53,991 nt of DNA from Pseudomonadota bacterium (GCA_039033275.1 JBCCCX010000001.1:1-53991), one strand, 5' to 3'. Shown: positions 4,437 through 53,991, numbered from the stretch's first letter. Numbers and translations: made by a program. Notes: generated by a model not told the origin, from the letters alone.

Positions 4437-5039
4437 TTATCCGATGATTTCGTAGTCGATGGGCTTGTAGGCGAAATTGTTGCTCTGCCCGGCGGAACAC
4501 GCCGTCATGGCAACGATCAGGTCCATTTTCGCCTCGAACTCCACACTGTCTCCGGCGCGGCTCTTGGGTGGCAGGACGCGAATCTCCCCCGTCTTCGAAT
4601 CGACATCCACATGCATGAACACGTTGAAGGCGATCGGCACGCGGTCCGGCCCTATCCCGTAAGGGGCGAGCGCGGCTTCCAGATTGCCTTGGCATCCGGG
4701 CAGGATCGGATGGTCGTCATAGAGGATGCGGAACGTGTCGCGCGAACACGGTGTCAGCGTGAAGTCGTGGCGTCCCACATCGTCGCGACCGATCTCGAAC
4801 ATCGGGTTGGAGCGGTTGGAGTAGAGCAGGTCGCCCGTGGAGAGGAACATGCGCGATGCGTAGTCGATCGACCGGCCGGACGAGAGGTATTCCTCAGGGT
4901 CATGGGCGTTGAAGGCGACGAGGTCGGAGACTTGCTGACCTTCCGGATCGGTCACGCGCAGGAGTTCGCCGCGCTTGAGCTCGAACGCCGTGCCGCTCTT
5001 GGGCGCGATGCGCTCCAGCGTCGTGGAGGCGGCGCTCAC
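4437..5039 (-). CDS. DUF1989 / urea-carboxylase-associated family protein (YcgI-like)
   Basis: DPEGQQVSD, GRHDF..TPC, GCQGN, FNVFM and TACS motifs. GTGA overlap with the upstream gene. Confidence 0.85.
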   Translation of the reverse strand: MSAASTTLERIAPKSGTAFELKRGELLRVTDPEGQQVSDLVAFNAHDPEEYLSSGRSIDYASRMFLSTGDLLYSNRSNPMFEIGRDDVGRHDFTLTPCSRDTFRILYDDHPILPGCQGNLEAALAPYGIGPDRVPIAFNVFMHVDVDSKTGEIRVLPPKSRAGDSVEFEAKMDLIVAMTACSAGQSNNFAYKPIDYEIIG

Positions 5040-5767
5040 TCGGCTGCCTCAATGAACGGCTCGGGCCTAACCGGCAGGTCGACGGCCTGTCGGGCCGTGA
5101 ACGGGCAGGACCAGTCGTCCCCAACCCTGCGGCCGCTATATTGGGCCGCCTCAGAGCCCTGGCCGAAGTCCTTGAGCATCGGATTGATCGATCCTGCCAG
5201 CGCTTCGTCGCGCTCGCGGATGATGCGCTTCATCTGGTCGTAGCGGCCATCCGCGCGCAGGGCCTCGAACTGGGCGTTGGAGTTGAAGACGAGCGCCGCG
5301 TGGTCGAACCGGCGTGCGGGCCGGGACGCGCCCGGATGCAGCCCGATGACGAAGAAGCTTTCTCCCGCGACAGATAGGGAGAAATTGTTGGATGCCGGAT
5401 CGTTCGACGTGTCGTCGGACCAGCGCTGGCCCATCTGCGTGTCGACGTAATGCAGTCCCTGCAGCCGGCTCCATAGAGCGTGCTCGAAGCCTGTTTCGGA
5501 CAAAGGCGGCGTGTCGGGGAAGATGACGACGAAGGACTGCACCACCATGCAGCCGGGTTCCAGCCGCTCCGCGAAATCCGAGAGGGCGAGCCATAGGGCG
5601 AGGTCATCGGCATTGGACTGCAGATTGCCCAGGGTCTTGGTCTCCAGCGCGCCGCGCACAAGGGCCGCCTTCGCGCCCACGCAAGGAAAGGCCTTGTCGT
5701 GGACGAATGTCTCGAAGCGGCTTTGCGCCCTGTTGTTCTCTTGCTGGCTTCGATGCGGGCAGGGCAA
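5036..5767 (-). CDS. YqcI/YcgG family heme-dependent N-hydroxylase (GntA/DcsA-like)
   Basis: FPCVGAK, FSLS..GESFFVIGLHP..SR.AR and EA.QYSGR motifs. AGGAG SD before a TTG start. Confidence 0.82.
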   Translation of the reverse strand: MPCPHRSQQENNRAQSRFETFVHDKAFPCVGAKAALVRGALETKTLGNLQSNADDLALWLALSDFAERLEPGCMVVQSFVVIFPDTPPLSETGFEHALWSRLQGLHYVDTQMGQRWSDDTSNDPASNNFSLSVAGESFFVIGLHPGASRPARRFDHAALVFNSNAQFEALRADGRYDQMKRIIRERDEALAGSINPMLKDFGQGSEAAQYSGRRVGDDWSCPFTARQAVDLPVRPEPFIEAAE

Positions 5768-5854: not shown

Positions 5855-6223
5855 AAAAAGGCTTATATGGGCCGAGTCCGTATGCTGTGAGCAAGCTTCC
5901 TGATGCTGGTGCGAAAGAGAACGCTTGAAAGCTAATTCCGCCAGATGGTCCCATCCCATGGATATCGTCGCATCCAAAAATCAAAGCGGGCCCAGCTTTC
6001 GCCAGGCCCGCAATAGTGAGAACTCGCAAGGGAACGGGGAAGGCCAAAACGAGTCCCGTATCAGCTAGCGTCGCCACTTTCGACATAACTGATGCCCCGA
6101 CCCTATCGTCCGGGTGGAATCGGGACCATAACCACGGCTACGGCTTTTCATCTAAATTGGCGCAAACGCGCGACAAACACGGCCAAACTCACTTCTTTTT
6201 ATTCTGGATATAGAATTTTGACT

Positions 6224-6281: not shown

Positions 6282-6420
6282 CCTGGTTTTAATCTGCTAA
6301 AAGAAGGGGAACGGCAGGGATCCTATATTGGGTCTGCCAAACGGGAAAACTCGGATCACACCCTCTGGACGGACATCGCGGGCCGCGGTGCAGGGGTTGG
6401 GTGCGGGCACGAAGACGATC

Positions 6421-7194
6421 ATGGCCACAACACGACAAAGCCTCGCCAACACCCTTGTGGAGCCCGCCTCCTTCCGCAAGCTCGCCGCCCTTTCCGACAT
6501 ATCCAGGGACGATCTCCAGTCCCTGTCTTCCATTCCCTACAACGACCTGACGGTTGCGCGGAACCGCTCGCTGGTGGACCATGTCAACGACCCGCTGAAA
6601 TGCTTCATCGTCGCGACCGGCTGGGCCTACTCCTTCGCCGTCATGCCGAACGGGCGGCGGCAGGTCTTCCAAATCTACCAGGAAGGCGATTTGATCGGGT
6701 TCGAGGACCTGATGTTCAAGCGCAACGTCTTTTCGGTCAACGCCATCACCAATTGCCGCCTCGCCAATGTGGCGACGGAGCAGATGCGGGCCTTCCTGGC
6801 GCGCAATGTGCGCCTGTCCTCATACCTCTACGCCATGAGCAACCTGAACCAGATCGTCCTTATGGACCGGATGCAGGTGATCGCGCGACTGGAGCCGAAG
6901 CCGCGCATGGCTCATTTCCTTATGGAGATCATGAGCCGCACCCGTGTCACGTCGGAATTCCACAATGGCCGGCGCGCCAACTCCATGGTCTTTAACCTGC
7001 CGATGCGCCAGGGACTGATCGCAGACTGCATCGGCATGAGCGCCGTGCACGTGTCGCGCACCCTGTCCTGGTTCGTGGATGAAAAGATCATCTCCCGGCC
7101 GGCGCGCCATATTTTCGAGGTCCATGAAGAAGAGAGGCTGCGCGAGATGAGCGGCTTCAAGAATCGTTACGAGACGGTTGCTCGCATGGCGTGA
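6421..7194 (+). CDS. Crp/Fnr family regulator (paralogue 1)
   Basis: cNMP-fold GWA..GRRQV..GDLIG; HTH LPMRQ..IADCIGMSAVHVSR. Confidence 0.9.
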   Translation: MATTRQSLANTLVEPASFRKLAALSDISRDDLQSLSSIPYNDLTVARNRSLVDHVNDPLKCFIVATGWAYSFAVMPNGRRQVFQIYQEGDLIGFEDLMFKRNVFSVNAITNCRLANVATEQMRAFLARNVRLSSYLYAMSNLNQIVLMDRMQVIARLEPKPRMAHFLMEIMSRTRVTSEFHNGRRANSMVFNLPMRQGLIADCIGMSAVHVSRTLSWFVDEKIISRPARHIFEVHEEERLREMSGFKNRYETVARMA

Positions 7195-7256
7195 CCGCAC
7201 CGGAGTCATTCCCACAACCTCCGTAAAGGGTGCAAGAAAGCTTCATAAAATACGTG

Positions 7257-7270
7257 TTGATCTGAATTAA
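7257..7270. promoter_or_regulatory. FNR/FixK-like box upstream of Crp paralogue 2
   Basis: TTGAT-CTGA-ATTAA; one mismatch to TTGAT-N4-ATCAA. Confidence 0.4.
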
Positions 7271-7415
7271 AGTGCGACAATAGCTAACTGCAAGCAATTT
7301 GCGAGCCTTAACGTGTTATAACGACAGCGGGGGGACTTTGTTCCTAAGGAAGAACTATTGGCGGATGCCGTTCGGGCGGGACGGGTCCCAGGGGATTTGA
7401 AAAGAACAGACCATA

Positions 7416-8183
7416 ATGCATCCGTTCATCCGTAAGATATCCAACTTCGCCGACATCGCGCCGGCCGAAGCCGACATGCTGCTCGACCTTTTCAGCCACG
7501 ACAAGGCTTTCGAAGACGGCGACGCGGTATTCGAGGAGGGCGAGGAGCAATCGACCTTCTACGTGGTGCTCGAAGGTTGGTTCTACTCCTATGCTATTCT
7601 GCCCGACGGGTCGCGTCAGATACACGATGTCTATCATGCTGGAGACGTGATCGGTCTCGACCATCTGTCCTGGTCCATTTCGACCATGTCCGTTTCCGCC
7701 GCATCCAATGGCCGCCTGGCCGTCGCCCCGCTGCTGCCGGCCCGGCGGATGATGTTCCGCAACCCCCATCTGTCGGCAATCTTCTACAGCCTACATATGT
7801 TGACGAATGTCCAGCTGCTCGACCGGATCACGGCCGTGGCACGCCTGGCCGCCTATGAAAGCCTCGCCTACTTCATCTCGGACGCGATTGCGCGCCGCAG
7901 GGTCATGGACTCGGATTATCCTTCGGAACTCTACCTACCTCTGTCGCAGAAATTCATCGCCGACTGTCTCGGCCTCTCGGCCGTCCATGTGTCGCGGCAG
8001 TTCAACAAGCTGATCGAGAACAAGCTGTTGCGGCGTTTGTCGCGCTCCTCTATCCAGATCCTCGACGAAGACCGGCTTCGCAAGATTGGGGACTATAATG
8101 ACCGGTACGCCAATCTCGACCGCCAGCGCTTCGAGCGCGAGCTGGGGCGCGCCCTTGCCGACCAGAATCTACCGGCTGAATAG
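7416..8183 (+). CDS. Crp/Fnr family regulator (paralogue 2)
   Basis: EGWF..DGSRQI..GDVIG; HTH LPLSQ..IADCLGLSAVHVSR. Confidence 0.9.
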   Translation: MHPFIRKISNFADIAPAEADMLLDLFSHDKAFEDGDAVFEEGEEQSTFYVVLEGWFYSYAILPDGSRQIHDVYHAGDVIGLDHLSWSISTMSVSAASNGRLAVAPLLPARRMMFRNPHLSAIFYSLHMLTNVQLLDRITAVARLAAYESLAYFISDAIARRRVMDSDYPSELYLPLSQKFIADCLGLSAVHVSRQFNKLIENKLLRRLSRSSIQILDEDRLRKIGDYNDRYANLDRQRFERELGRALADQNLPAE

Positions 8184-8210
8184 GATCGCTTCCATTAGGT
8201 TCATCGGGTT

Positions 8211-9260
8211 GTGACGGCCCCGCGCGACATCATGCTCGACTCCGAGCATCCCGATCTTAACATGGACATGAGCGGTTTCTTCCGTGCCACGTCCATCTCC
8301 TTCGTCGTGGCCGATCCCAACCGTCCCGACACACCTATCGTCTATGTCAACCGCGCTTTCGAGCTGACCACAGGCTACTCGCACCGTTTCGTGGTGGGGC
8401 GGAATTGCCGTTTCCTCCAAGGGCCGGACACCGATCCGGAAGCGGTCAAGAACATCGCCATCGCCCTGTCACGCAAGGAGGGCGTGCGCCAGAAGATCCT
8501 GAACTACCGGGCAGACGGATCCACATTCATCAACGATCTCGTCATCACCCCCATCAAGGATGCAGACGGGAAAGTGGCCTATTTCGTCGGGGTGCAGCGC
8601 GAGCTGAGTTCCACCGAGGAGGCCAATGAAGACGAACTGCGCCGCCGCACGGTCGATATTGTGCGCCAGCAAGTGCAGATCCACTTGTCAGTGGTGATGG
8701 AGATGTCCCGCATTCACGCCGAGGACGGCGACGATGACGGGCCGGTCGATTTCGTCAGCCTCTTGCGGCGTCTCGAAATCCTCGATCTTCTTTACGAGAA
8801 CCTGAACGAATCGTCGTTGCGCGACGAGCTGCTCGATGCCGGCGCCTATGTCAGCCAGATCGCCGCCAAGCTTGTCGCCAAGAGCCCGCAGCCCGGCGTT
8901 CGCATCAACATATCCACGGAACCCGCCGTCGTGCCGCTCGACATCGCCGTGCGGTTGGGTGTGGTCTTGGCGGAGTTGCTGGACGCTTCGCTCACCACCT
9001 CATTCAATGGTCTGGACTCAGGCCAGTTGGAAGTCATCCTGCGCAATGACGGCGATCGTGTGAAACTGTCAGTCTATGATGATGGGCACGGCGACCCGAG
9101 TGCGTCGGACTGGCTGGATTCCGGCGATCTAACCCTCAGGGTGATCCGGCGCCTGCTGAACGATATGGACGCCGAGATCGAAGCCCCCGAAGTTGATCAG
9201 GGGCGGGAGATCAACGTCATCGTGCCGATTGGGCCGAAGGTGCCGGAGCGGAAGCGCTAG
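8211..9260 (+). CDS. LOV blue-light sensor with degenerate HisKA_2/HWE-like kinase domain
   Basis: Canonical GRNCRFLQG LOV motif, NYRADG and FVGVQ; C-terminal VYDDGHG box. Start uncertain (8211 GTG or a later ATG). Confidence 0.9.
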   Translation: MTAPRDIMLDSEHPDLNMDMSGFFRATSISFVVADPNRPDTPIVYVNRAFELTTGYSHRFVVGRNCRFLQGPDTDPEAVKNIAIALSRKEGVRQKILNYRADGSTFINDLVITPIKDADGKVAYFVGVQRELSSTEEANEDELRRRTVDIVRQQVQIHLSVVMEMSRIHAEDGDDDGPVDFVSLLRRLEILDLLYENLNESSLRDELLDAGAYVSQIAAKLVAKSPQPGVRINISTEPAVVPLDIAVRLGVVLAELLDASLTTSFNGLDSGQLEVILRNDGDRVKLSVYDDGHGDPSASDWLDSGDLTLRVIRRLLNDMDAEIEAPEVDQGREINVIVPIGPKVPERKR

Positions 9261-9987
9261 CTTCGCGCGTCGGCATGGCGACGATTTCTTCCAGCTGCAT
9301 GCCGCAGATTTCCGATAGCGCCTCGGCGTCGTGCACCACGATCCGGTTGCGACCGTAGTCGATCAGGCCCTCTTTACGGAAAGCGCTCATCAACTTGGAG
9401 ATCGATACGTTGGTCAGGCCGAGCATGTTGCCGATCTCTTCCTGCGTCATGGGCAGCCGTATCGTCTTGTGAAGGGCGGTTTCACCCATCTGCTGGGCGA
9501 CGTCGAGAATGCGGAGCATCACGAAGGCTAGGCGCCCGCGTGCGGGGAGCTGACCCAATGCTGTGAGGTGGCGCTGCGTGCGCTGCGTCTGGCGGGCCAG
9601 CGTCTCGGCGAGCCAACGCGACAGCGCCTCGTCACCGGCGCAGACATGTTGCAACGTGTCGATATCGATCCTGTAGGCCTTGGCATCCTGCAGAGCGATG
9701 GCGGAAAAATCCGATCCGATTTCGTCGAGCTGGCTCAGACCGGCAAAGCTGCCGGGGCCGAGTATGTCGAGTATCTGCGTGTCGCCCGTGTCGATGGACA
9801 TCTTCGAAACGGCATAGCCTTCGGATATCAGAAAGACGGCCGTCACGGGCCGGCCGTCGGCGATGATGGAGCGGCCGCGGCCAATGTCCGAACGCCTGTG
9901 CTTGGAGAGCTGCAAGCCCTCCACCAGTGCGGAGGGAAGCCGATCTAGAACCGGATCGTTGTGATAATGTTGGTCTGCAGCTGTCAT
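9217..9987 (-). CDS. Crp/Fnr family regulator (paralogue 3)
   Basis: EGYA..GDTQIL..GPG; HTH LPMTQEEIGNMLGLTNVSISK. Its 3' end overlaps the LOV gene by 44 bp. Confidence 0.88.
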   Translation of the reverse strand: MTAADQHYHNDPVLDRLPSALVEGLQLSKHRRSDIGRGRSIIADGRPVTAVFLISEGYAVSKMSIDTGDTQILDILGPGSFAGLSQLDEIGSDFSAIALQDAKAYRIDIDTLQHVCAGDEALSRWLAETLARQTQRTQRHLTALGQLPARGRLAFVMLRILDVAQQMGETALHKTIRLPMTQEEIGNMLGLTNVSISKLMSAFRKEGLIDYGRNRIVVHDAEALSEICGMQLEEIVAMPTREASASAPAPSAQSAR

Positions 9988-10151
9988 AATGCGGATTTCG
10001 GTCCGACGGACGAGGTAGCCCGCCTCTTAAAATAGTTTATCTCACCTTCACAACGTTTCTGCAAGACATTCCGTTCCTGTAATGGCGCCACCTTTTTGCG
10101 TTAAGTTGAGAAACGCGATTTTTTTGACTGTCTGCGAGACGCCGGAAATGC

Positions 10152-10181
10152 GCTGCTGCACAAACTGCTGCTGCACAAACT
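10152..10181. repeat. 15-bp tandem duplication
   Basis: GCTGCTGCACAAACT twice, in intergenic DNA upstream of Crp paralogue 3. Confidence 0.8.
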
Positions 10182-10196
10182 GTGGAGCAATGCGCA

Positions 10197-10916
10197 TCAG
10201 GCTGGCGCGCGAAACCGGTTCCCGACCATATGCAGGCGGGCCGGCCCGCGCAGACGGCGACCGTGTGAGGTCGTTTTCAAGGCTTCGACCATGGCGATCG
10301 CTTCTGCGACATGATCGTTGTGGAACTCTTGCGGAACGCAGAGCACGGCATGGCCGCGGCGCCGCGCTTCGGATGAGCCCTCGCCCGCGCGGCCGATCCA
10401 CAGGCCTTTCGGTCCGGCGCCCAACGAGGCCCTATCGATCGGCTCGAGAATTTGGCTGTCATGTATGTGCGGCAGAACCGTGGAGAGCAGTACATCCAGA
10501 AGCGAGCCCGACCAGTTGCATATAACGTCGATCCTCGCTCTCCTGTCGATCAGCCCGTCCAGAAACGCGGCCATCGCCTCGTTGACGCGCGGGACACCGA
10601 GCAAAAGCTGGGTGCCTATCTCGATGTGATAGTGCCGGATCACCTTGGGCCAGAGTTCGCGCCAATAGGGGCCTTGGCGCGGGTCGGACTGCACGAGCGC
10701 GCGCAATAGATCCATCTTGTGTTCGGATAGGCACCCTGCCGCCAGGAACCGTGTCACGGCCTGTCCGAGTTCGCCCTTGTCGAGCTTGAAGACCTGCACG
10801 GTGGCTTCCAGTGCCTTCATCTGCACAGAGGCGAAGTCCCCGAAAAGATAGGGCGAGGCGATGATGACGCGGTCCTGCCGGGTAGGGCGGCTGACCCGAT
10901 TTGTAAGCTGACTCAT
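10197..10916 (-). CDS. Hypothetical protein
   Basis: 239-codon ORF with globular-looking composition, GAAGGA SD-like sequence, fills the gap; no recognised motif. Confidence 0.6.
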   Translation of the reverse strand: MSQLTNRVSRPTRQDRVIIASPYLFGDFASVQMKALEATVQVFKLDKGELGQAVTRFLAAGCLSEHKMDLLRALVQSDPRQGPYWRELWPKVIRHYHIEIGTQLLLGVPRVNEAMAAFLDGLIDRRARIDVICNWSGSLLDVLLSTVLPHIHDSQILEPIDRASLGAGPKGLWIGRAGEGSSEARRRGHAVLCVPQEFHNDHVAEAIAMVEALKTTSHGRRLRGPARLHMVGNRFRAPA

Positions 10917-11063
10917 AGCGTCCTTCCCAGGACAAGGTCGATGTGAGTCTTGTGCGCTCCAGCCTGGGGCGTGTCCTTAACATCAATCACGCTTTCAGAC
11001 GGTATTTCGCTCCCGGATCGCCGGAATCCTGGCATTGTCGTGCAAGATGCTAACGATAAGCGC

Positions 11064-12551
11064 ATGATTCCGGATGATTTTGTCGCCGCGCTCGATCCTT
11101 TTCCGACCCTCATGGACCGTATCCATGTCATGGCGGAACGGCCCGTCCGGCGACCCGCACGCTATGTGCTGTGCTGGATCCAGCAGGCGCTACGATGCGA
11201 CCAGAACCCTCTGGTCGAGGCCGCGCAGGCGATCGGCAATGCGCTCGGCCTGCCCGTCCTGGTCTATCACGGCATCTCGCAGACCTATCCGCACGCATCC
11301 GATCGGCTGCACTGGATGCTGCTGGGCGGCAGCCGAGAAATGGCGCGGGGCCTGTCGGAGCGCGGCATCCGGACGGTCTGCCATGTCGTGCGCCCCGGCC
11401 ATGTCGAGAAGGGGCTGGTCTACCGCTTGGCGGACCATGCGGCCTGCGTGGTCCTGGAGGACCATCCGACTTTCGTCGCCAGCTGGCAGAGTCGGTCATT
11501 CGCCGCAAAGGCCGACTGCCCCGTTCTGGCGGTAGATGCCGCAAGGCTCGTCCCCTACCGGACCCTGCCGGCCGGTCTGCGTACGACAAAGGCGTTCCGG
11601 AAGGCATCCGGCGAACGGCGCGCATCCTATCTGGACGGCATTCCGCGAACCGAGGTGCCATGCCCGCCCTACGACGGCCCGCTGCCATTTACGCCCACCC
11701 AGATCGAAGAAGCCGACGACGCATCGCTCTCAACCCTCATGAAGGCTTGCGACATTGACCACTCGCTGCCCGTTTGCGAAGCGCATCCTCCGTCCCGAAA
11801 GGTCGCCCTGAACCGGATGGAGCGCTTCGTCGCGCAAAGCTTGGCGCGCTACAAGTGGGAGCGCAACAACCCCGCCTCGCCCCATGCGGGTTCGGAACTC
11901 TCGCCCTATCTTCACTTCGGCATGATCGCGCCCTGGGAGGTCGCTGCCGCCGTGCGGGCCTCCAATGTTCATGCCGCGGCCAAGTGGAAATTCCTCGACG
12001 AATTGCTGACCTGGCGGGAATGGTTCCACTACCAGGCCCTGCACATGCCGGGATTTGAGCGGTTCGAGACGCTGGCCGCCCGGCCCCGGGACAGCCTGCT
12101 GGCCCATGCCGACGATCCGCGCGAGACGCTCTATAGCATGGACGAATTGCTGCACGGCCGCACGGAGGACGAAACGTGGAACGCCGCGCAGCGGCAATGG
12201 CTTCTGGACGGCTACATGCACAATAATCTGCGCATGTATTGGGGCAAGAAGCTCATCGGATGGACGCCCGATCCAGAGACGGCCTGGAATGTCGCTTGCT
12301 ATATAAACGACCGGATCAGCCTGGATGGCCGTGACCCGGCGACCTACGGCAATATGCGGTGGTGCTTCGGGGACGCGCGCCCGGCCTACAGGGAGGCTGC
12401 GGTCTATGGCTGGGTCGCACCGAAGACGGACCGTGCGCTGAGGAAGCGCACGGGCGTGCCGGAATGGCTGTCGCGGATGGCATCGCGCGAGGGGCCGCGC
12501 ATCGATGCCCCGAATGCCTACCCCGATGCGCCCCGTCCCAGCTTGGACTGA
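11064..12551 (+). CDS. Class II CPD photolyase-like protein
   Basis: YVLCW..ALR..NP, LSPYLHFG, FLDELLTWRE, WNAAQ..GYMHNNLRMYWGKK and LDGRDP..YG..WCFG motifs. Confidence 0.85.
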   Translation: MIPDDFVAALDPFPTLMDRIHVMAERPVRRPARYVLCWIQQALRCDQNPLVEAAQAIGNALGLPVLVYHGISQTYPHASDRLHWMLLGGSREMARGLSERGIRTVCHVVRPGHVEKGLVYRLADHAACVVLEDHPTFVASWQSRSFAAKADCPVLAVDAARLVPYRTLPAGLRTTKAFRKASGERRASYLDGIPRTEVPCPPYDGPLPFTPTQIEEADDASLSTLMKACDIDHSLPVCEAHPPSRKVALNRMERFVAQSLARYKWERNNPASPHAGSELSPYLHFGMIAPWEVAAAVRASNVHAAAKWKFLDELLTWREWFHYQALHMPGFERFETLAARPRDSLLAHADDPRETLYSMDELLHGRTEDETWNAAQRQWLLDGYMHNNLRMYWGKKLIGWTPDPETAWNVACYINDRISLDGRDPATYGNMRWCFGDARPAYREAAVYGWVAPKTDRALRKRTGVPEWLSRMASREGPRIDAPNAYPDAPRPSLD

Positions 12552-12587
12552 ACCCATCCGACCGGGCCGCGAGGCGGCGCGGTCGGA

Positions 12588-12767
12588 TCAGTCGAAGCGG
12601 TTGCCTTCGGGCAGGGACTGGTCTCCCGCACCATCGCTGCGCGTTTCGGCATCGTCGTTCAAGGCGGGCGAGCTGGTCAGTTCGGCTTCATTGGCCTCGT
12701 CCCGCATCTTCTTGAACTCGGCTTCCATCTCGTCAGAATTCTTTTCGGGCTTGGTCGCGATCGTCAT
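12588..12767 (-). CDS. Small acidic hydrophilic protein (59 aa)
   Basis: AAGGAG SD before ATG; perfect EcfG-type promoter upstream; sequence MTIATKPEKN..EGNRFD. Confidence 0.65.
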   Translation of the reverse strand: MTIATKPEKNSDEMEAEFKKMRDEANEAELTSSPALNDDAETRSDGAGDQSLPEGNRFD

Positions 12768-12804
12768 GGCCTGTCTCCTTGCTGTCTTTCGGCTTGCACC
12801 CATC

Positions 12805-12830
12805 AACGGGCGCCACCGCTTCGGAGTTCC
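12805..12830 (-). promoter_or_regulatory. EcfG/SigT-type promoter for the small protein
   Basis: GGAAC-N17-CGTT. Confidence 0.7.
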
Positions 12831-12926
12831 GGCGCGGCGTCTCCGAGCGGCGGTCCATGCCATCGAAAAGCGGCCATTTCCGGTTTTGCTCGCAGTCAAC
12901 GCCTCGCGCCGCCTTGCGGACGTGCC

Positions 12927-12952
12927 GGAACGTCTTCCGCCGTCTTCCCGTT
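12927..12952 (+). promoter_or_regulatory. EcfG/SigT-type promoter for Crp paralogue 4
   Basis: GGAAC-N17-CGTT. Confidence 0.7.
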
Positions 12953-13046
12953 GGTGCTGTGTCGGTGCAACCCATCGGTAAAGCCAGGCGATGTCGAGCG
13001 GCGTCTGACTGGCACGACCGCAACGAAACACGATGAGGTGCAAGAC

Positions 13047-13808
13047 ATGGTCCTGCAAATGACAATGGACGAGGCATGCGGCACCAGCTGCCTGGTCGAA
13101 AAGCTGTCGCACTATGTCGAGCTCGACGATCGCGAGCGCATGGCCGTCAACAAGATGCAGTCCGTCGAAAGGCATTTCGAGCGCGACGAGCTTATATTCT
13201 CCACCGCGGATAGCAATCAGGACCTCTACATCGTCCAGGAAGGGTGGCTGTTTAACTCCATCGACACACCGGATGGTCGCCGACAGATTGTCAACATCTA
13301 CCATCCAGGCGACGTTATCGGCTTTCCGGACGTGGCCCTTCCCGAACGCACGACCAACCTATTTGCAGTCGAGAAAGGCTCGCTCTGTCCCTTCCCCAAA
13401 AGCGGCCTGGGGGCCGTGTTTCGGGACTGCCCGCGCCTGGCGGCACTGCTGTTGACGATCGCCCTGCGGGAGGAGACGATCCTGATCGATCGCCTGCGCA
13501 TCTTCTCGCGCATGAGCGCACAGGCGCGTGTCGGCTATCTGTTCCTGGAACTGGAAGCGCGACTGAATGTCGGGTCCAAAGACCCGGGGCGGACAATCTA
13601 CATGCCGCTGAATCAGCAGGAAATGGGGGATATGGTCGGACTGACCAATGTTAGCGTGTCCCGCGCCATCACCGCCATGGAGGCGGCGGGACTCATCCGG
13701 ACTGCGCCAAAGGCCGTCACACTGCTCCGAAAGACCGAACTGGTGGAACTCTGCGATTTCAAGGATCGCTATTCGACCATGCAAACGGAATGGTTCCCAA
13801 TGGGGTGA
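13047..13808 (+). CDS. Crp/Fnr family regulator (paralogue 4)
   Basis: EGWL..DGRRQIV..PGDVIG; HTH MPLNQQEMGDMVGLTNVSVSR; GAGGTG SD. Confidence 0.9.
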   Translation: MVLQMTMDEACGTSCLVEKLSHYVELDDRERMAVNKMQSVERHFERDELIFSTADSNQDLYIVQEGWLFNSIDTPDGRRQIVNIYHPGDVIGFPDVALPERTTNLFAVEKGSLCPFPKSGLGAVFRDCPRLAALLLTIALREETILIDRLRIFSRMSAQARVGYLFLELEARLNVGSKDPGRTIYMPLNQQEMGDMVGLTNVSVSRAITAMEAAGLIRTAPKAVTLLRKTELVELCDFKDRYSTMQTEWFPMG

Positions 13809-13854
13809 AGCGTGCCGAGGCGCCGAACGAATGTCCGGTCTGGAATTTTAGGGC

Positions 13855-14130
13855 CTAGCCAAGCAAGGAAAGCTGGTCGCCGCCGGGGTGAGAACCAGGC
13901 ACTGAGCGCGCCGCGACGCCGGGCGGAATGGAAGACGGCAGGTCGGCTCCGAACCCGCCGGACGAGGCTTTGCGCCAGCTATAGACTTTGGCGAGGGCGG
14001 AGCCGGGTGGGCAGTACCACCGTTTCACGGATGCATCCCAGCGCGCGCCGAGGCGCTTGGCCATTTCTCGGTCTTTGTAAGCGACATTGATATAGCGTTT
14101 GGTCACAACCATTCCCCTCTGTTCGGCCAT
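13855..14130 (-). CDS. Stand-alone DUF5710-like small protein
   Basis: YINVAYKDREMAKRLGARWD...KRWY motif. Start uncertain (14130, 14112 or 14106). Confidence 0.72.
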   Translation of the reverse strand: MAEQRGMVVTKRYINVAYKDREMAKRLGARWDASVKRWYCPPGSALAKVYSWRKASSGGFGADLPSSIPPGVAARSVPGSHPGGDQLSLLG

Positions 14131-14131
14131 A

Positions 14132-14146
14132 GAACATAGTAAGAAC
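14132..14146. promoter_or_regulatory. Alphaproteobacterial LexA (SOS) box
   Basis: GAAC-ATAGTAA-GAAC (GTTC-N7-GTTC on minus), overlapping a TTGATC-N17-TATGTT promoter-like sequence. Confidence 0.7.
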
Positions 14147-14333
14147 ACTCGGGTGGATCAAGGAATTTATTCTTAGCATAGGTCAAGTCCGCAGAGCGTA
14201 CAGTCTGCGTTCATTTTCGCCGTCAAGAGGAGAGACAACCCCGTCGTGCAAAAATGAAATTTTTAACTGTTTGAAACTAGTTTGGAGCTAGAAGGTTTCT
14301 GTAGTATTGGAAGTTTTCAACCTGTGAGAATGT

Positions 14334-14723
14334 GTGACCCTATCCAATCCTCATAATGGCAGCAAACGCGTTATCGTCGTCGAAGACGAGCCGCTGATCG
14401 CTTATGATCTCGTTGCCGAGATCGAGGCGAGTCACCACGAGGTCGTTGGGCAATGCGGGTCGGCTGTCGATGCCATCGCCCTGACCGAAAAGCTCCGGCC
14501 CGATGTCGTCATCATGGATATCGGCCTGCTGGGGGACCAGAACGGCCTCGAAGCCGCTCGGGAGATCCGCAAGAGTTTCGGCATAGGATGCGTATTCGTG
14601 TCCGCGACTCTCGACCGTGTCGACGACGATATGTGGGGTGATATCAAGCCCGTCGCCTTGATCCGCAAGCCTTACCGCGACAAGGCGCTGAGCGAGGCCA
14701 TATCCAGTAGCGATGCGGCCTGA
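14334..14723 (+). CDS. Single-domain response regulator (receiver)
   Basis: VVEDE, PDVVIMDI (phospho-acceptor Asp), FVSA and KPY motifs. Confidence 0.9.
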   Translation: MTLSNPHNGSKRVIVVEDEPLIAYDLVAEIEASHHEVVGQCGSAVDAIALTEKLRPDVVIMDIGLLGDQNGLEAAREIRKSFGIGCVFVSATLDRVDDDMWGDIKPVALIRKPYRDKALSEAISSSDAA

Positions 14724-14903
14724 CGGACAGGGTCTTCAACCCCAGCTCGATTGTCGGAAGCGTGCAGAAGCCGCAAGGCCTCATCCTAAACTGCGACAAA
14801 TGACAACATATGTTGGAAAACGCTTGAAAAATTAACTTGGACTAATATCCGGCGTTGAATTCCTTTTCACGAAAGCCCGTCGCTTTCGACAACGGCCGGG
14901 ATC

Positions 14904-15650
14904 ATGATGGACGACGCCAAGCTGCAGTTGCAAGCCCTCTTGCCTCCGGCCATTCGCCATCGGTCCTGGATCGACGACATGGCCTTGCGCCAACACGATC
15001 TCGCCCCGCGAGACCTTCTTTTCCGGCCGGACGGAAGCCCCCAGCGCCTGTATTTCGTCGCCAAAGGTTGGCTGCATGGCACGACGGCCCTATCGGAGCG
15101 GCTGCGTCCGATCAGCACGCTGCGCATACGCGGCGACATGATCGGCCTGTCCTGGATCGACAGGCCGAACCGGCTGGAAGACGTCAGTGCCATCACGCAT
15201 GCCGAACTGATCAGCGTCCAGGCGGAGGAGTTCCGCGACGCCATGCGACAGGATCCGGAGCTACAGGCTTTCGCGTTCGACGAACTCGTGCGCGACATGA
15301 TGAACCTGCGGATGATGAGCGCGGTCGTCGGACACATGAAAGCGCCGGATCGGCTCGCCTACTTCCTCTTCATCATGCTCAACCGTTGCCGCCGGACCTA
15401 CCAGACCCGGCTGAACACGCTTTCCCTGCCCATGACGCAGGAAGAAATCGGGCGCATACTCGGCCTCACCAACGTGTCGGTGAACAGGGCCTTCCGTTCG
15501 CTGGAAACGGATGGGCTGATCCAGACGGGGCGCCAAGCCGTGACGTTTCTGGACGAGGATCGGTTCGCACGGCGCTTCGATATGCATGACCGTGCGGAGC
15601 TGATAAACCAGCTCGTCGGATCGCGGCTCGGATCGATTCAGGCAGCCTGA
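14904..15650 (+). CDS. Crp/Fnr family regulator (paralogue 5)
   Basis: KGWL..GDMIG; HTH LPMTQEEIGRILGLTNVSVNR. Confidence 0.9.
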   Translation: MMDDAKLQLQALLPPAIRHRSWIDDMALRQHDLAPRDLLFRPDGSPQRLYFVAKGWLHGTTALSERLRPISTLRIRGDMIGLSWIDRPNRLEDVSAITHAELISVQAEEFRDAMRQDPELQAFAFDELVRDMMNLRMMSAVVGHMKAPDRLAYFLFIMLNRCRRTYQTRLNTLSLPMTQEEIGRILGLTNVSVNRAFRSLETDGLIQTGRQAVTFLDEDRFARRFDMHDRAELINQLVGSRLGSIQAA

Positions 15651-15803
15651 GAGGTTGTTCAAAGCAGTTTAAACTGTGCTCTGAGTTATTGTTCGCAATT
15701 CGCTGCGAAACCGCTTATATGACTGTGCATTCTTACTGTCGGACCGGTTACGGTCCGGCACGACCATGCGATCCCGCTCGAGTGCCCACGGATAGGAGCC
15801 AAA

Positions 15804-16841
15804 TTGCCGGACGACAGCGACATGCGCGCTGCCAAAGAGCAGCTCGAGCGACGTCGTCTCGCACGTCTGGTCGACGCTCTGCCCGTTTTTTCGGGTTTCG
15901 CTTCGCCGGATGGCCATCTCATGCAGGCTCGCCCGCAAACATCCGAATCCTTTCTATGGTCCTTGCCCGAATTCGCCTACGCGCACGATTCCGTCACACA
16001 AGTCGTGGACATGTGCGAGAAGGCGTCCAAGGGCGAGCGCGTGCAGGTCGAACGGCCCTATCTGAAGGAAACGGTCGGGCAGAGTGCTCTGTACGGGCGC
16101 GGCCTGCTGACCCTGTCACCGATCCTGGACGATAAAGGTCATGTTGAGGAACTGGCCGTCACGCTGCTCGACTGCGACGAAGCCGGGCTGACGCCGCACG
16201 ACGCGTTCGCCAAGTCGCGCCTGTCGGAAGCCAATGCCCGCATCGAATCCATGTTGAGCCTTGCTCAGACCGTTGTGGAAGTCTCCCATCCCCTGATCGG
16301 CACAGCTGAGGGGCGCGATCGCCTGTCCGACCGGTTGGACGCACTGGCCGCCGTCATCGAAACCGTGAGCGAACCCGACCTCGCCGACATGCCCATCGAG
16401 GCCCTCATCGAGACGGCGTTGGAGGGTATGGACAGCGGTCGGCGGACCCATCGGCTGCAGCTTATGATGGGAGGTGGCGCGGTGCCGATCACCTATGTTC
16501 CGCTTGTCATGCTGCTGCTGTCGGAACTCGTGACCAATGCTTGCCTCCACGGCGCATGGCGCGACGATTCAGGCGACCGACAGGGCACGGTCGCCGTGCA
16601 GTCCGAAGTGCTCGACAGCGTGAGCGGGCGCGTCCTGCGCCTGCATTGGATAGAGGACGGAGGCCCGCCGGTCTCCGCCGTGCTGGGCCGGGGCTTCGGT
16701 TTCACACTCGGCGAGCGCCTATTCCCTCAAATCACGGGCGGAACGGCGCGGCTGCTCAACTCCGAGGACGGAATCAGCTGGACGTTCGAGCTGCCCATTC
16801 CGGACACGGACGATTTCGATTTTGACGGGATCGACGCGTGA
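15804..16841 (+). CDS. PAS + HWE-type kinase-like protein lacking the phospho-acceptor His
   Basis: LSELVTNACLHGA, WIEDGGP and GFG retained; the H-box position reads EANARIES. AGGAG SD. Confidence 0.8.
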   Translation: MPDDSDMRAAKEQLERRRLARLVDALPVFSGFASPDGHLMQARPQTSESFLWSLPEFAYAHDSVTQVVDMCEKASKGERVQVERPYLKETVGQSALYGRGLLTLSPILDDKGHVEELAVTLLDCDEAGLTPHDAFAKSRLSEANARIESMLSLAQTVVEVSHPLIGTAEGRDRLSDRLDALAAVIETVSEPDLADMPIEALIETALEGMDSGRRTHRLQLMMGGGAVPITYVPLVMLLLSELVTNACLHGAWRDDSGDRQGTVAVQSEVLDSVSGRVLRLHWIEDGGPPVSAVLGRGFGFTLGERLFPQITGGTARLLNSEDGISWTFELPIPDTDDFDFDGIDA

Positions 16842-17821
16842 AGACGCCCACCGTCGTCCGGCCCAGCGCCTTTCACTCACCTGTCCGGAAGACCCGGCTC
16901 CTATTGGCGAGCCTGCCTCTGTTCGCCGGTCTGCTGTCGGAAGACGGACGTGTGCTGGAGTGCAATTTCGGGCCGCTCGGCGGTCCGCTGGAAGAGCGCA
17001 CGGATTGGATCGGCCATCCTTTTGAGACGGGTCCCTGGTGGAGCTATTCGGAAAGCTCCCGCGCCGAGATTCTGATCATGTTGGGCCGGGCGCAGCGCGG
17101 CGAGGCCGTGTCCAAGGAACGGCTCTACAAGAAACCAGACGGATCGATGGGCGTGATGATGCTGTCGCTCAAACCGTTATTCGCCCCCTACGGTCAGCCC
17201 GACGCCATTCTGGTGACGGCGGTGGACGTCACGGAGCGTCGACGGGAAACGGACACGGCCGACCGGATCGCCCACGACATGGCCCACCGTCTGCGCAACA
17301 GCTTCACCATCATGCGCACGCTGGCGACGCGTTCTGATCCGGACGAAGACGCCGCGCGCATTCTGTCCCGCCGCCTGTCGCGCGTGCGCGATGGCCATGC
17401 CCTGTCCTACCGCTATCTGTTCTTCGACGTGCCGGTGCAGGACATCGTCGCGGCGGCGGTGGACGATCCGTCCCAGCTGTCACGCTACGAATACGACCCC
17501 GTCGGTATTCCGGCCGATCACGTCGAGACGCTGATGCTGGCGCTGGGCGAACTCGCCTTACCGGGACGCAAGGCCGAGCTTCTGGCTCAGCGCATCGGTA
17601 GCGATCGTCTGTCCCTGCAGTGGACGGAAGACACGCCGCGATCCGAAGCCGACATGCCGAAGGGCCTTTCAAACGTCCTCATCCGCGTCGTCCCCGAACA
17701 GAAGACGGGCGGAACCGTAACCCTGGAGAACGGACCCGACGTCTTCATCTGGCGTTTCGAGTTCGGCATAGATATTCAAGACGACCTCACGGGGACACCA
17801 CAGATCGTCGCTTCGGCCTAA
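16838..17821 (+). CDS. PAS + HWE-type kinase-like protein with H-box but degenerate ATP-binding domain
   Basis: PAS ends VDVTERR; DMAHRLRN H-box and WTE present; no N-box Asn or GFG. GTGA overlap with the upstream gene. Confidence 0.78.
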   Translation: MKTPTVVRPSAFHSPVRKTRLLLASLPLFAGLLSEDGRVLECNFGPLGGPLEERTDWIGHPFETGPWWSYSESSRAEILIMLGRAQRGEAVSKERLYKKPDGSMGVMMLSLKPLFAPYGQPDAILVTAVDVTERRRETDTADRIAHDMAHRLRNSFTIMRTLATRSDPDEDAARILSRRLSRVRDGHALSYRYLFFDVPVQDIVAAAVDDPSQLSRYEYDPVGIPADHVETLMLALGELALPGRKAELLAQRIGSDRLSLQWTEDTPRSEADMPKGLSNVLIRVVPEQKTGGTVTLENGPDVFIWRFEFGIDIQDDLTGTPQIVASA

Positions 17822-47251: not shown

Positions 47252-48500
47252 GTGAAGCCTCTTTTCGCAAAGCGCCTGCCAGTCATCCTTCAGACGGAAA
47301 TGACGGAGTGCGGACTGGCCTGCCTCGCCATGGTCGCGCGCCATCATGGCCACGATGTCGATCTGAACAGCCTGCGCGCCAAGCATCTTCTATCCATGCG
47401 CGGCACGTCGCTGAAGCAGATCATCAAGATCGCGGGCGAGCTGTCCTTGTCGCCGCGCGCCTTGCGCGTCGATCTGGAGCAGCTGGACAAGCTCGCCCTG
47501 CCGGCGATCCTGCATTGGGACCTGAACCATTTCGTCGTGTTGGAGCGGGTGCACGGCGATCGTGTGATGATCGTCGATCCGGGCATCGGCCGGCGCGTCA
47601 TGCCCCTGTCCAAGATATCCGACCATTTCACCGGGGTGGCGCTGGAACTCACGCCGGCTGCCGATTTCCAACCGGTCACGGATCGCATCCGGCCGAAGCT
47701 GACCGACCTCTGGTCGTCCCTGGTCGGGGCGAAGCGGGCTGTGGCGCAGACGTTGTTCCTGTCGCTGGCGCTGCTCGCGACGATCTTGCTCTCGCCCTTT
47801 CTGTTCCAGCTTGTGGTCGATGCCGTTCTGCCTGTGCCGGGCGAGACTGGGGGCGACAGGTCATTGTTGATCGCGCTGGCGCTGGGCTTCGGGGGGCTGG
47901 CCGTGATGCGCGCGGTGGTGGAAGCGGCGCGCGGCTACACCATCGTCACCTTCGGTGCGCAACTGTCGCGCCAAATGGTCGGCAACATCTTCCGCCACCT
48001 CGTACGCCTGCCGGTGCGCTATTTCGAGCGCCGCCATGTGGGCGACATTATCAGCCGGATGAATTCGACCCAGCCGATCCAGGAAGCGTTGTCGCAATCG
48101 GTCGTGTCCGTTCTGATCGACGGGGCCATGGCGGCACTCATGCTGGTGGTGATGTTTGCCTTCTCGCCATTATTGGCGGCGATCGTGGTCGGCACTACGC
48201 TGCTGCTCGTGGCGGCGACCCTGCTCATCTATCCGAAGCTCAGAGCCGCAAAGGAGGAAGCCATCTATATGCGCGCGCTGGAAAACAGCCATGTCATCGA
48301 AAGCATCCGCGCTTCCACGACCGTGAAGCTGTTTGGGCGAGAGGCGGAGCGTGAGGCGAGCTGGGCCAATCTTTTCGCTGACTTCGTCAATGCCGATGTC
48401 GGTCACCAGCGCTGGCAGGTCGCGCAGACCTTCTCCCAGACGCTGATCATCGGTCTGCAGGTCGTGGCGGTCGTCGTGGCGGCGGCTTGGATGATGACGG
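47252..48500 (+). pseudogene. C39-peptidase ABC transporter (CvaB-like), truncated before the ATPase domain
   Basis: LQTEMTECGLACL, LHWDLNHFVV and YFERRHVGDI motifs. The TM domain breaks after AAAWMMT and reads through unrelated DNA to 48682. Confidence 0.85.
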
Positions 48501-48596
48501 CTCGGCATAGATGGCTCCCACCGAAGGCTGGGGTGATAACAGGGTGCCATTCAGGTCAATGGAAATGGCTCGAATTTTTGAAGGATCAAATCGCAT
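48501..48596 (-). pseudogene. 5' fragment of a HAD-superfamily hydrolase gene
   Basis: Manual translation MRFDPSKIRAISIDLNGTLLSPQPSVGAIYAE (HAD motif I-like DxxGTL), ending at the junction. Confidence 0.65.
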
Positions 48597-48712
48597 CTAT
48601 CAGGATGTGTAGGCTGAGTATGTATTCGCGACTGCGCAAGGGTGGTCTGGTCCGCGGAAACGTATTTCTAGGTTGCCATTGAAGGTGGTTCAACGAGTGC
48701 TATACCTCGGTA

Positions 48713-49723
48713 ATGAAGAAACTACTGCAAATCAATGGATTCTTGATTGGGGTGATGGTGGCCGTAGGGCTGGCTTGGCTACTGCCTGATTTGGGCGCAA
48801 AGGGCGGGCTGTTGCGGAGTGAAATCAGCACGAGAATCGGCGTCTTCATCATTTTCGTAATTCAGGGCCTGACCTTGCCGACAAACGAATTGAAGCAGGG
48901 ATTGTTGCAAGTGAGACTGCATGCGGTGTGTCAACTGAGTATCTTTCTATGGGCGCCAATCCTTTTATGGTTGGTCCTTTGTATTTCCGAATCATTCATC
49001 GAAGTTCCCTCTGATTTGCGAGTGGGGTTTTATTTTTTAGCAATTTTGCCCACGACGGTATCAACGGCGATTGTTTTCACGAGTAAGGCGGAAGGTAATG
49101 TCGCTGGCGCGCTTTTCAATACTTCGGTAGCCAATGTGTTGGGGGTTTTCATTGTGCCCCTCTTTATGACTTTCGTTCTTAAAGATACGGTGGCGGGTGC
49201 AGATGCGGGGCAAGTTCTGAATTTATTAGGCAAAATCTCTCAAATAATTTTAGTACCTTTGATCATAGGACAGGTATTGCGTATCTGGTACGCGGATTGG
49301 GCGAAAGCTAAGAAAAAAGCACTGAGCAAAGTGAATGTTTACATCATCTATTTCATGATCTATGCGGCTTTTTGTAACTCGGTTAAAAAGGGCTTATGGA
49401 ACGATTACGGCTTGGATACCGTCGGGATCGCCTTTGGGTTGAGTCTTTTGTTTCTACTGCTTATGACTGGATCGGTCTACTTGTTTTCCCGTATCCTAAA
49501 GTTTGATACAAAAAACCAGACAACGATCCTTTTTTGCGGAGCGCAAAAGACTTTGGCTGCCGGTGTTCCGATGGCCAACACAATTTTTATCGCAGAGCGT
49601 CCAGAGCTTGGTCTGGTGTTGCTCCCCATTATGTTTTACCACCCAAGTCAAATATTACTCGGATCCTATTTGATGAGCTTTTTCGAGAAGAAGGTGAAAG
49701 CGGAGCAAAAGCGAGCAAGCTAA
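48713..49723 (+). CDS. Bile acid:sodium symporter family protein (YfeH-like)
   Basis: LPTTVS..FT..A.GN..ALFN, FCGAQKTLAAGVPM and PIMFYH..Q motifs. Confidence 0.88.
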   Translation: MKKLLQINGFLIGVMVAVGLAWLLPDLGAKGGLLRSEISTRIGVFIIFVIQGLTLPTNELKQGLLQVRLHAVCQLSIFLWAPILLWLVLCISESFIEVPSDLRVGFYFLAILPTTVSTAIVFTSKAEGNVAGALFNTSVANVLGVFIVPLFMTFVLKDTVAGADAGQVLNLLGKISQIILVPLIIGQVLRIWYADWAKAKKKALSKVNVYIIYFMIYAAFCNSVKKGLWNDYGLDTVGIAFGLSLLFLLLMTGSVYLFSRILKFDTKNQTTILFCGAQKTLAAGVPMANTIFIAERPELGLVLLPIMFYHPSQILLGSYLMSFFEKKVKAEQKRAS

Positions 49724-49817
49724 ACTAAACAGCCATTTAGAGTTATAAACGGGACGCTGTGCATTCAGCTTGATTCATGGCGTTTTTCTGGAATTTCGAA
49801 TCTTGCAAACTTTTGAT

Positions 49818-50615: not shown

Positions 50616-50722
50616 CTGTATTTTGTGCGTTGATCTCGTTTGCAATTTTTTATTATTCCTAGGCGCAGTTGGTATTTGCAACCCGCGATATTAGTAGATT
50701 CACCCTTTTAACTTTCGATTCC

Positions 50723-52136: not shown

Positions 52137-52191
52137 GGGAGGGGCCACGTTAATTCGATGGCTCAGGATTGATTGCGGTTCAGAAAGGCCC

Positions 52192-52683: not shown

Positions 52684-52694
52684 CTCCCAAGGCC

Positions 52695-53910: not shown

Positions 53911-53991
53911 GAGCTGCTTCGCGCTCTCGCCCCAGGGGCGATGCAGGCGCAGCGGAAACGGACCCAGCCCGCTCAGGCTCTTGGCCAGAAA

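Follow-up and report, generated by a model that had tools for sequence, protein, structure and literature searches.

How can a light sensor that has lost the residues of a kinase act on transcription, and do the regulators gathered around it form one circuit? These questions are raised by an 11.4-kb cluster of 13 genes in a stretch of 53,991 nucleotides (nt) from a Pseudomonadota bacterium (GCA_039033275.1 JBCCCX010000001.1:1-53991; hereafter the window, from whose first letter all positions are counted), of which the close homologues bear the source names Litorimonas and Algimonas. The cluster lies between eep/yqcI and astD, and includes five open reading frames in which cNMP_binding and HTH_Crp_2 both score above the Pfam cut-offs (crp1 to crp5, named in order), as well as genes for a LOV-domain protein (lov), an orphan of 239 amino acids (aa), a photolyase, a 59-aa protein, a DUF5710 protein, a single-domain receiver, and two HWE-like proteins, HweA and HweB (Table 1). 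A preliminary description had read this set, together with EcfG-type promoters, a LexA box and AT-rich spacers, as a dedicated blue-light/ultraviolet (UV) circuit in which LOV and HWE kinases feed PhyR. Its inventory is borne out, with the photolyase class II-like, as is its remark on novelty: no account of this layout (the pairing of two Crps, a complementary pair of dead HWE proteins, and an RNA) was found in the literature searched, which left most subscription papers and all supplements outside. It had overlooked catalytic losses in the three kinase-like proteins, the HAD-fold-like 239-aa gene, and a structured RNA located just upstream of the coordinate at which it began.

The cluster is best read as several modules under separate control, and not as one circuit. 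Its conserved core is crp1-crp2-lov, kept in that order, for which the best explanation is that a light-gated LOV pseudokinase, comparable to LdaP of Dinoroseobacter shibae, acts on Crp1 and Crp2 by direct binding rather than by phosphotransfer, a reading whose probability we place a little below even. Of 47 congeners, 8 (Litorimonas/Algimonas group, marine alphaproteobacteria) share the gene order throughout the cluster, as far as they are assembled and at the same site, in line with the synteny expected by the preliminary description; the genes are not scattered. Genus genomes with the cluster, the source genome included, are termed carriers, G-numbers denote sampled genomes, and the source genome (G000) is 91% complete. 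Crp1 and Crp2 (80-94% identity) match the flanking astD enzyme (82-87%) in conservation. The core also occurs on its own, in G176, where only crp1-crp2-lov is found (46/49/39% identity), at a different locus, beside an operon that we take to be of the radical-SAM type. This locus is devoid of HWE pair, receiver and photolyase, and neither PhyR nor HweB gave a match anywhere in the G176 assembly (99% complete, 2 contigs). In all 9 genus genomes with a full-length member of the LOV group (8 carriers and G176), lov is located directly behind crp2.

The lov product is an EL346-type (LOV-DHp-CA) protein that carries the LOV motif GRNCRFLQG, and among its 27 orthologues the photoactive residues Cys66 and Gln129 are invariant (27/27 each), which agrees with the earlier view of the domain as a sensor. 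The phospho-His position holds Gln in 24 of the orthologues, including that of the source genome, Asn in 1 and His in 2, and the N-box Asn, involved in Mg-ATP binding, is kept in 1/27; the G176 protein is likewise without phospho-His. The loss of His in 25/27 and of the N-box Asn in 26/27, alongside the invariance of Cys and Gln, therefore points to selection on the LOV protein for sensing, not for kinase activity. EL346 of Erythrobacter litoralis (4r3a) is the best full-length structural relative, and the equivalents of its His142 and N-box Asn are those that have been lost. Intact EL346-type kinases elsewhere are rarely found near a Crp gene (1 weak match in the 20 closest loci, 2 in all 80).

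A precedent for signalling by such a protein is LdaP (Dshi_1135), which, in the accessible portion of the report, is a His-less EL346-like protein that binds the repressor PpsR in a light-dependent manner (PMC10890935). Both proteins are EL346-like LOV-DHp-CA molecules from which the phospho-His has been lost, and of the known systems LdaP comes nearest as a model of a pseudokinase that is gated by light and binds a transcription factor. They differ in that LdaP-like proteins keep the N-box Asn, which the cluster LOV group lacks, and in that LdaP, as portrayed in the same portion, is an orphan with PpsR and photosynthesis genes as its targets, the cluster lov being linked to two Crp genes. In a quick tree of 71 proteins, which carried a long-branch warning, the LdaP-like group and the present group occupy separate branches (support 100 and 97), and the loss of the phospho-His thus looks independent of that in the LdaP group. 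The cluster LOV protein is not an LdaP orthologue; by analogy, it probably works like LdaP. Reaction-centre genes (PF00124) are found in 0/48 genus genomes, in a search that was not aimed at PpsR itself, and the LOV protein therefore needs a target other than the photosynthesis genes, which are ruled out in this role. Among LOV-kinase-like proteins encoded elsewhere, one from a carrier genome (L334, G241:C233:1118-2050) has no recognisable HRxxN box, and G128 holds a copy with an intact HRVKNHL (L335).

In the favoured reading, the LOV protein would bind flavin mononucleotide and change shape in blue light, through a photocycle expected from its conserved residues, and would bind or release Crp1 and/or Crp2 as LdaP does PpsR. 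A Crp1/Crp2 homo- or heterodimer would then occupy a 14-bp dyad at -41.5, and this binding would lead both to autoactivation of crp1 and to expression of a divergent small RNA, the main visible output. The sequence footprints in the promoters are observed: upstream of crp1, TTA[AT]CATTAGTTAA stands 19 nt before TGnTA in 7/8 carriers, with the dyad centred at -41.5, and the dyad of the small-RNA promoter lies exactly 22 nt before a conserved TA in 7/8 carriers and 21 nt before it in the eighth. The same geometry is present upstream of crp1 in the distant G176. The position -41.5 is that of class II sites of CRP/FNR activators. In G128 the only 2 genome-wide matches to the dyad are those of the crp1 and small-RNA promoters, which in G158 account for 2 of 3.

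The predicted RNA, located between yqcI and crp1, folds into three hairpins with an invariant C/U-rich loop and a terminal terminator-like hairpin. In an alignment of 7 genomes, 13/31 pairs change on both sides, a level reached by 0/500 shuffles and by slid controls only up to 2, in a comparison that flatters the covariation somewhat, the structure having been derived from the same 7 sequences. Rfam contains no match above threshold (best E 0.053, terminator only). The 18-nt loop pattern is found in 7/251 family genomes, 6 of these beside crp1; G023 carries a diverged copy, and no small RNA was seen by the crp1 of G176. In its length (about 100-120 nt) and exposed C-rich loop the RNA resembles GsrN of Caulobacter (PMC5869019), from which it differs, as far as the accessible text on GsrN goes, in that GsrN is driven by sigma-T/EcfG, whereas the promoter of the cluster RNA contains the -41.5 dyad and lacks an EcfG motif, and the RNA itself has no counterpart in Rfam. 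Two other roles were rejected: a guanidine-type riboswitch for yqcI/DUF1989 is ruled out by the absence of an Rfam match and by the RNA remaining with crp1 in G158, which is without those genes at that site, and an encoded peptide is ruled out, neither start codon nor frame being kept.

The leaders of crp1 and crp2 share the element G[GA]ACGG (6367-6372 and 7379-7384), 46-57 nt before the crp1 start and 32-44 nt before that of crp2. It is kept in 8/8 in each leader, as against 154/1998 genes genome-wide, a pattern that makes it a candidate post-transcriptional element shared by the two. Pairing of the small RNA with this element was tried and rejected, the pairing energies ranking only 129 and 365 of 1998; the persistence of the element in G023, although the RNA loop differs there, also counts against pairing.

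A number of observations weigh against the favoured reading. LOV proteins can also respond to redox state, and the core is not accompanied by any photoprotection gene: carriers may lack the photolyase, and among 5 of them tested 3 (G128, G214 and G016) hold 2-3 microbial rhodopsins each, while none was found in the source genome or G158. The Crps can persist alone, as in G139, which has crp1 but no lov with it, and in G243, where the same is true of crp2. The G176 dyad is reached by chance in 1/20,000 shuffles, with a pattern that had been widened after that site was seen. A search for a genome-wide dyad regulon found none, with no enrichment and reversed-pattern controls equally frequent. Finally, the dyad may be a CtrA site, its spacing being like that of podJ P1; sciP is present in 5/5 genomes tested, and TGCGAC lies upstream of crp2 and crp5.

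The last of these points leads to a rather unlikely but more substantial alternative, in which the core is a unit timed by CtrA/SciP and the LOV pseudokinase binds other HWE/HisKA_2 kinases, either HweA/HweB or intact ones elsewhere, thereby tuning the flow of phosphate to receivers and PhyR, with the Crps co-expressed rather than directly targeted. The Caulobacter podJ P1 promoter, in the available part of its description, has TTAA-N6-TTAA at -49 with an upstream GCGAC, a SciP half site; TTAACAT is a CtrA half motif according to the same source (PMC4287350). The crp1 dyad equals that CtrA motif in spacing and position, and TTAAC and GCGAC precede both crp2 and crp5. Partners would be available, seven other HRxxN proteins being encoded in the source genome beyond the cluster and phyR-nepR-ecfG, with a PhyK-type gene beside ecfG, on another of its contigs; the DHp-like helix pair of the LOV protein is invariant within its group. 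On the other hand, the small-RNA site has no TTAA and yet keeps dyad and spacing; strict TTAA-N7-TTAA boxes number 0 in all 12 cluster stretches (one relaxed box in one, N6 forms in 10/12), while the sciP promoter of the source genome has the usual N7 box, much closer to its -10; and the core persists in G176 without PhyR or HweB. For the crp1 and small-RNA sites, assignment to Crp stands at about an even chance and assignment to CtrA clearly lower, at roughly a third, whereas for the crp2 and crp5 promoters CtrA/SciP is the more likely. A perfect TTAAC-N4-GTTAA is also found between convergent HWE kinase and receiver genes near phyR in three non-carriers (L156:7080, L157:6955, L158:9747), where it may reflect only facing stop codons.

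Outside the core, the direct-binding reading envisages an EcfG-driven module (crp3, the 59-aa gene and often crp4), a DUF5710 gene under LexA control, a photolyase that not all carriers have, and a crp5-hweA-hweB unit, in some carriers with a receiver. Through these, signals of stress (EcfG) and of DNA damage (LexA) would come in, and possibly signals from the cell cycle. In the 11.4 kb there are 4 copies of GGAAC-N15-18-CGTT, where the genome-wide rate predicts 0.36; three copies have a 17-nt spacer and face a gene start, and the fourth (7320-7344) was discarded as antisense and not conserved. Strict EcfG motifs gave 0 matches across carriers before crp1, crp2, lov, photolyase, receiver, crp5 and hweA. 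At the cluster site, G002 and G149 hold only duf5710-(59-aa)-crp3, with none of the other Crps, and these cases, together with the absence of an EcfG motif before any core gene, indicate that the modules sort independently.

It is at this point that the single blue-light/UV circuit of the preliminary description, with LOV and HWE kinases phosphorylating the lone receiver and PhyR, and EcfG driving five Crps and the photolyase, becomes improbable. In its favour, the 8 congeners that share the gene order belong to one clade with one loss (in the PhyR+EcfG tree, the carriers and G149 make up one branch), conserved EcfG motifs do precede crp3, the 59-aa gene and sometimes crp4, with the photolyase and a LexA box nearby, and HweA and HweB have, between them, one His and one ATP site. 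However, the LOV protein has neither His nor N-box Asn, all three kinase-like proteins miss catalytic elements, and crp1-crp2-lov occurs without PhyR, HWE pair, receiver and photolyase. Nor does the photolyase fit as a part of one circuit, being present in only 4/8 carriers and lacking an EcfG motif, and the LexA box faces only the DUF5710 gene. The receiver is found in 6/9 carriers, absent from 2 and undetermined in 1. The five Crps, regarded earlier as one set of outputs, do not form one clade.

HweA and HweB are both modelled by AlphaFold as PAS-DHp-CA folds, and their genes overlap stop-to-start by 4 nt. In HweA the His is present in 1/28 sequences, while Arg146, Glu241, Asn245, Gly250, Trp282, Glu284 and Phe298-Gly299 are found in 28/28 (N-box, WxE and G2 kept). 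HweB shows the complementary state, with His and Asn154 each in 27/29, an N-box Asn in at most 1/29, and the NAxKYG segment deleted relative to 5epv. Judged by these residues, there is no complete kinase among the LOV protein, HweA and HweB. In the favoured reading, HweB would be a PhyT/PhyK-like phosphotransferase, or a phosphate sink or relay, and HweA its ATP-binding, non-phosphorylatable partner. Complementation between HweA and HweB is possible. An HWE kinase with a solved structure autophosphorylates in cis according to the part of the report available (PMC8092228), which argues against simple complementation in trans, and hence against the single circuit. HweB shares HRxxN and a degenerate ATPase domain with PhyT (PhyP) of Sphingomonas melonis and PhyK of Caulobacter (PMC5898713, PMC5964349); relative to these, as far as they are described in the accessible passages, HweB is soluble with a PAS domain and no membrane anchor, is located away from the phyR locus, and is encoded by a gene overlapping that of a His-less partner. 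The neighbouring receiver is not of the FATGUY type of MrrA and SdrG, having FVSATL in 6/6. A maximal version of the favoured scheme, in which a phosphorylation-free switch combines a LOV pseudokinase gating a Crp1-Crp2 heterodimer, a new TTAAC-N4-GTTAA class II site, a new small RNA, and an HWE pair that rebuilds a kinase or relay, is unlikely as a whole.

The EcfG-linked part of the locus is already of a known kind, because Crps beside phyR, in an HWE kinase-receiver operon and under EcfG are all in print: an HWE kinase-CRP-single-domain receiver operon in E. litoralis DSM 8509 (bioRxiv 10.1101/641647), a Crp-Fnr gene downstream of phyR in Rhodobacter sphaeroides (PMC5830050), and the EcfG-regulated Crp #0072 of S. 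melonis (PMC6599016). In the accessible portions of these three sources, they are single genes, and have neither a tandem Crp1-Crp2 with a LOV pseudokinase nor a complementary dead HWE pair. In the genomes sampled, a Crp lies within 1.5 kb of phyR in 18/29 genus phyR loci, and crp4-like proteins, always encoded by single genes, are present in 13/300 class genomes, at a distance from phyR or ecfG of no more than about 7 kb in 5 of these, as well as in stress-gene neighbourhoods on plasmids. The source genome has a sixth Crp of the same kind, convergent with phyR (L025:8346-9098, contig C99). Crp4 has an N-terminal SC[LV] cysteine (13047-13100), common to several crp4-like proteins elsewhere, which is possibly a redox or metal site.

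Recent tandem duplication of one Crp gene is ruled out by a pairwise identity of 20-30% among Crp1-Crp5 and by at least 3 origins; in the tree, 5 changes are counted, of which at least 3 are forced, and Crp1 and Crp2 stand at the head of an old group each. Where FNR has its recognition Glu, all five Crps have Val, at a position that sets specificity in this family according to the text available (PMC2677863), and an altered FNR-like box is therefore plausible. None reaches the cut-offs of the FNR/FnrL, FixK, CRP and NtcA models (at most 62 bits versus 180-400).

Such mixed ancestry is what would be expected if the site between astD and eep were merely an insertion hot spot in which stress regulators have piled up, with lov linked to crp1-crp2 by shared history and no functional tie. 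The G+C content of the cluster (60.8%) is below that of its flanks (63.6% and 67.1%), an insertion-sequence-like gene is found at the cluster site in G149, and content varies between relatives: where the relevant part is assembled, the photolyase is found in 4/8 carriers, the orphan in 3/8, crp4 in 7/8 and the 59-aa gene in 8/8. Nevertheless, the crp1-crp2-lov order has survived a move to another locus and a protein divergence of about 50-60%, with promoter geometry intact, reading frames are intact in all carriers, and crp5-hweA-hweB is unbroken in 9/9; a purely historical link thus has only a small chance of being correct. Six of the seven spacers longer than 60 nt within the cluster have a G+C content of 41-56% and the seventh 64%, with genes at 59-65% and the genome at 63.8%.

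With regard to the accessory genes, the photolyase matches class II enzymes in 6/6 PDB hits (E 2e-49), and reaches 256 bits with TIGR00591 against a cut-off of 550; this type is present in only 5/48 genus genomes, all carriers. A second class II photolyase-like gene (L026:474-1889, contig C394 of the source genome) is 59% identical to the cluster copy. The 239-aa orphan has no Pfam or NCBIfam match, and its predicted HAD-like fold with no visible DxD motif makes it a possible fourth pseudoenzyme in the locus. The DUF5710 gene adjoins astD in the non-carriers G002, G149 and G024; just upstream of its -35 there is a near-palindrome, AAGGAAT-n-ATTCTT (14165-14179), in 6/6 aligned genomes. YqcI/YcgG and DUF1989 genes (4437-5767) border the cluster in 6 carriers; G158, G149 and G002 do not have them at this site. 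At the right end of the window (48500-53991), the G+C content drops to 44-55% with strong skew, which suggests foreign DNA.

Table 1. Features of the cluster, with positions in the window (pLDDT, AlphaFold model confidence score; TM, structural similarity score; E, expectation value).
Feature	Position	Strand	Remarks
crp1	6421..7194	+	core gene; recognition helix SAVHVSR; 84-94% identity in 6 relatives
crp2	7416..8183	+	core gene; recognition helix SAVHVSR; directly upstream of lov; 80-93% identity in 7 relatives
LOV pseudokinase, EL346 (LOV-DHp-CA) type	8211..9260 (start 8211 or 8232)	+	best PDB match 4r3a, E 1e-61
Predicted small RNA, ~118 nt	5976..6093	-	divergent from crp1; covariation
14-bp dyad TTA[AT]C-N4-GTTAA	6262..6275	+	-41.5 of predicted crp1 promoter; candidate Crp1/Crp2 or CtrA site; extended -10 at 6295-6303
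14-bp dyad nTAnC-N4-GTTAT	6128..6141	-	-41.5 of predicted small-RNA promoter; -10 at 6100-6105
crp2 promoter elements	7284..7321	+	dyad-like site 7284-7297 and TTAAC-N4-TATAA over extended -10 (7308-7321); conserved, 5 genomes aligned; TGCGAC just upstream
TTAAC-N4-R[CA]TAA	14832..14845	+	between -35 and -10 of predicted crp5 promoter; 7/9 carriers; TGCGAC upstream; CtrA/SciP-like or Crp site
crp3	9217..9987	-	EcfG-type promoter; also in G002, G149 without other Crps
EcfG-type promoter of crp3, GGAAC-N17-CGTT	10052..10077	-	5/8 carriers, also G149
239-aa orphan	10197..10916	-	accessory; predicted HAD-like fold, no visible DxD motif; Atlas look-alikes HAD, TM 0.54-0.66; 3/8 carriers
Class II CPD (cyclobutane pyrimidine dimer) photolyase-like gene	11064..12551	+	accessory; 4/8 carriers with part assembled
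59-aa acidic protein	12588..12767	-	probably a typical small EcfG-regulon product; 8/8 carriers with part assembled
EcfG-type promoter of 59-aa gene	12805..12830	-	motif in 6/7 carriers
EcfG-type promoter of crp4	12927..12952	+	3/7 carriers
crp4	13047..13808	+	type found in stress-gene neighbourhoods elsewhere; 7/8 carriers
DUF5710 gene	13855..14127	-	under LexA box; start uncertain; domain match
Alphaproteobacterial LexA box GTTC-N7-GTTC	14132..14146	-	overlaps -10 of DUF5710 gene and faces only that gene; 9/9 carriers
Single-domain receiver	14334..14723	+	Asp62 and Lys112 intact; Response_reg 50 bits
crp5	14904..15650	+	always directly upstream of hweA-hweB; 9/9 carriers
HweA, HWE-family PAS-DHp-CA protein	15804..16841	+	no phospho-His, ATP-binding motifs kept; model pLDDT 83, fold matches 6ph4/5epv
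HweB, PAS-DHp-degenerate CA protein	16838..17821	+	HRxxN kept, N-box and G-boxes lost; model pLDDT 80

The range of the cluster is narrow. Full-length hweB orthologues are present in 9/48 genus genomes, the source genome included, and the 182 sampled genomes of other family genera yielded no orthologue and 3 weak matches. A Crp1 profile run over 400 genomes of the order gave strong matches in this genus only, two matches elsewhere being crp4-like. A profile search of 1.8 billion representatives recovered further Crp1 and Crp2 relatives, among which the Crp relative P0180, together with the His-less LOV protein P0088, sister to the LOV group, suggests without demonstrating that the same pairing exists elsewhere. 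A metagenome scan with Crp2 gave no match, and one with the Crp1 alignment gave 80 distant loci (25-33% identity), of which 1 had two Crp genes and 0 the cluster. The second locus, at which G176 has the core, is occupied by crp1 alone in G139, and by crp2, another Crp and a receiver in G243. There (L316:6748-9486, L317:8258-10992, L320:4854-7579) the Crp genes lie just upstream of a radical-SAM and partner operon, presumably the DNA-repair pair TIGR03916/TIGR03915, and the Crp content differs in the three genomes.

The significance of the locus is broader than its range, given that, across Alphaproteobacteria, phyR and HWE kinase genes are widely accompanied by Crp/Fnr genes whose products have a VHVSR/VSVSR recognition helix (18/29 genus phyR loci; 5/13 class-level matches), and that no paper assigning these products an input, binding site or target was found in the literature searched. 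The locus offers testable candidates for all three, namely a light sensor in the same unit, the -41.5 dyad and the small RNA. In addition, the HweA/HweB pair represents a natural experiment on the complementation of two half-dead HWE kinases. Finally, in the LOV protein an EL346-type kinase appears to have become a pseudokinase for a second time and independently, and this suggests that binding, in place of phosphotransfer, is a recurrent means of light control among marine bacteria, some of which have no reaction centres.

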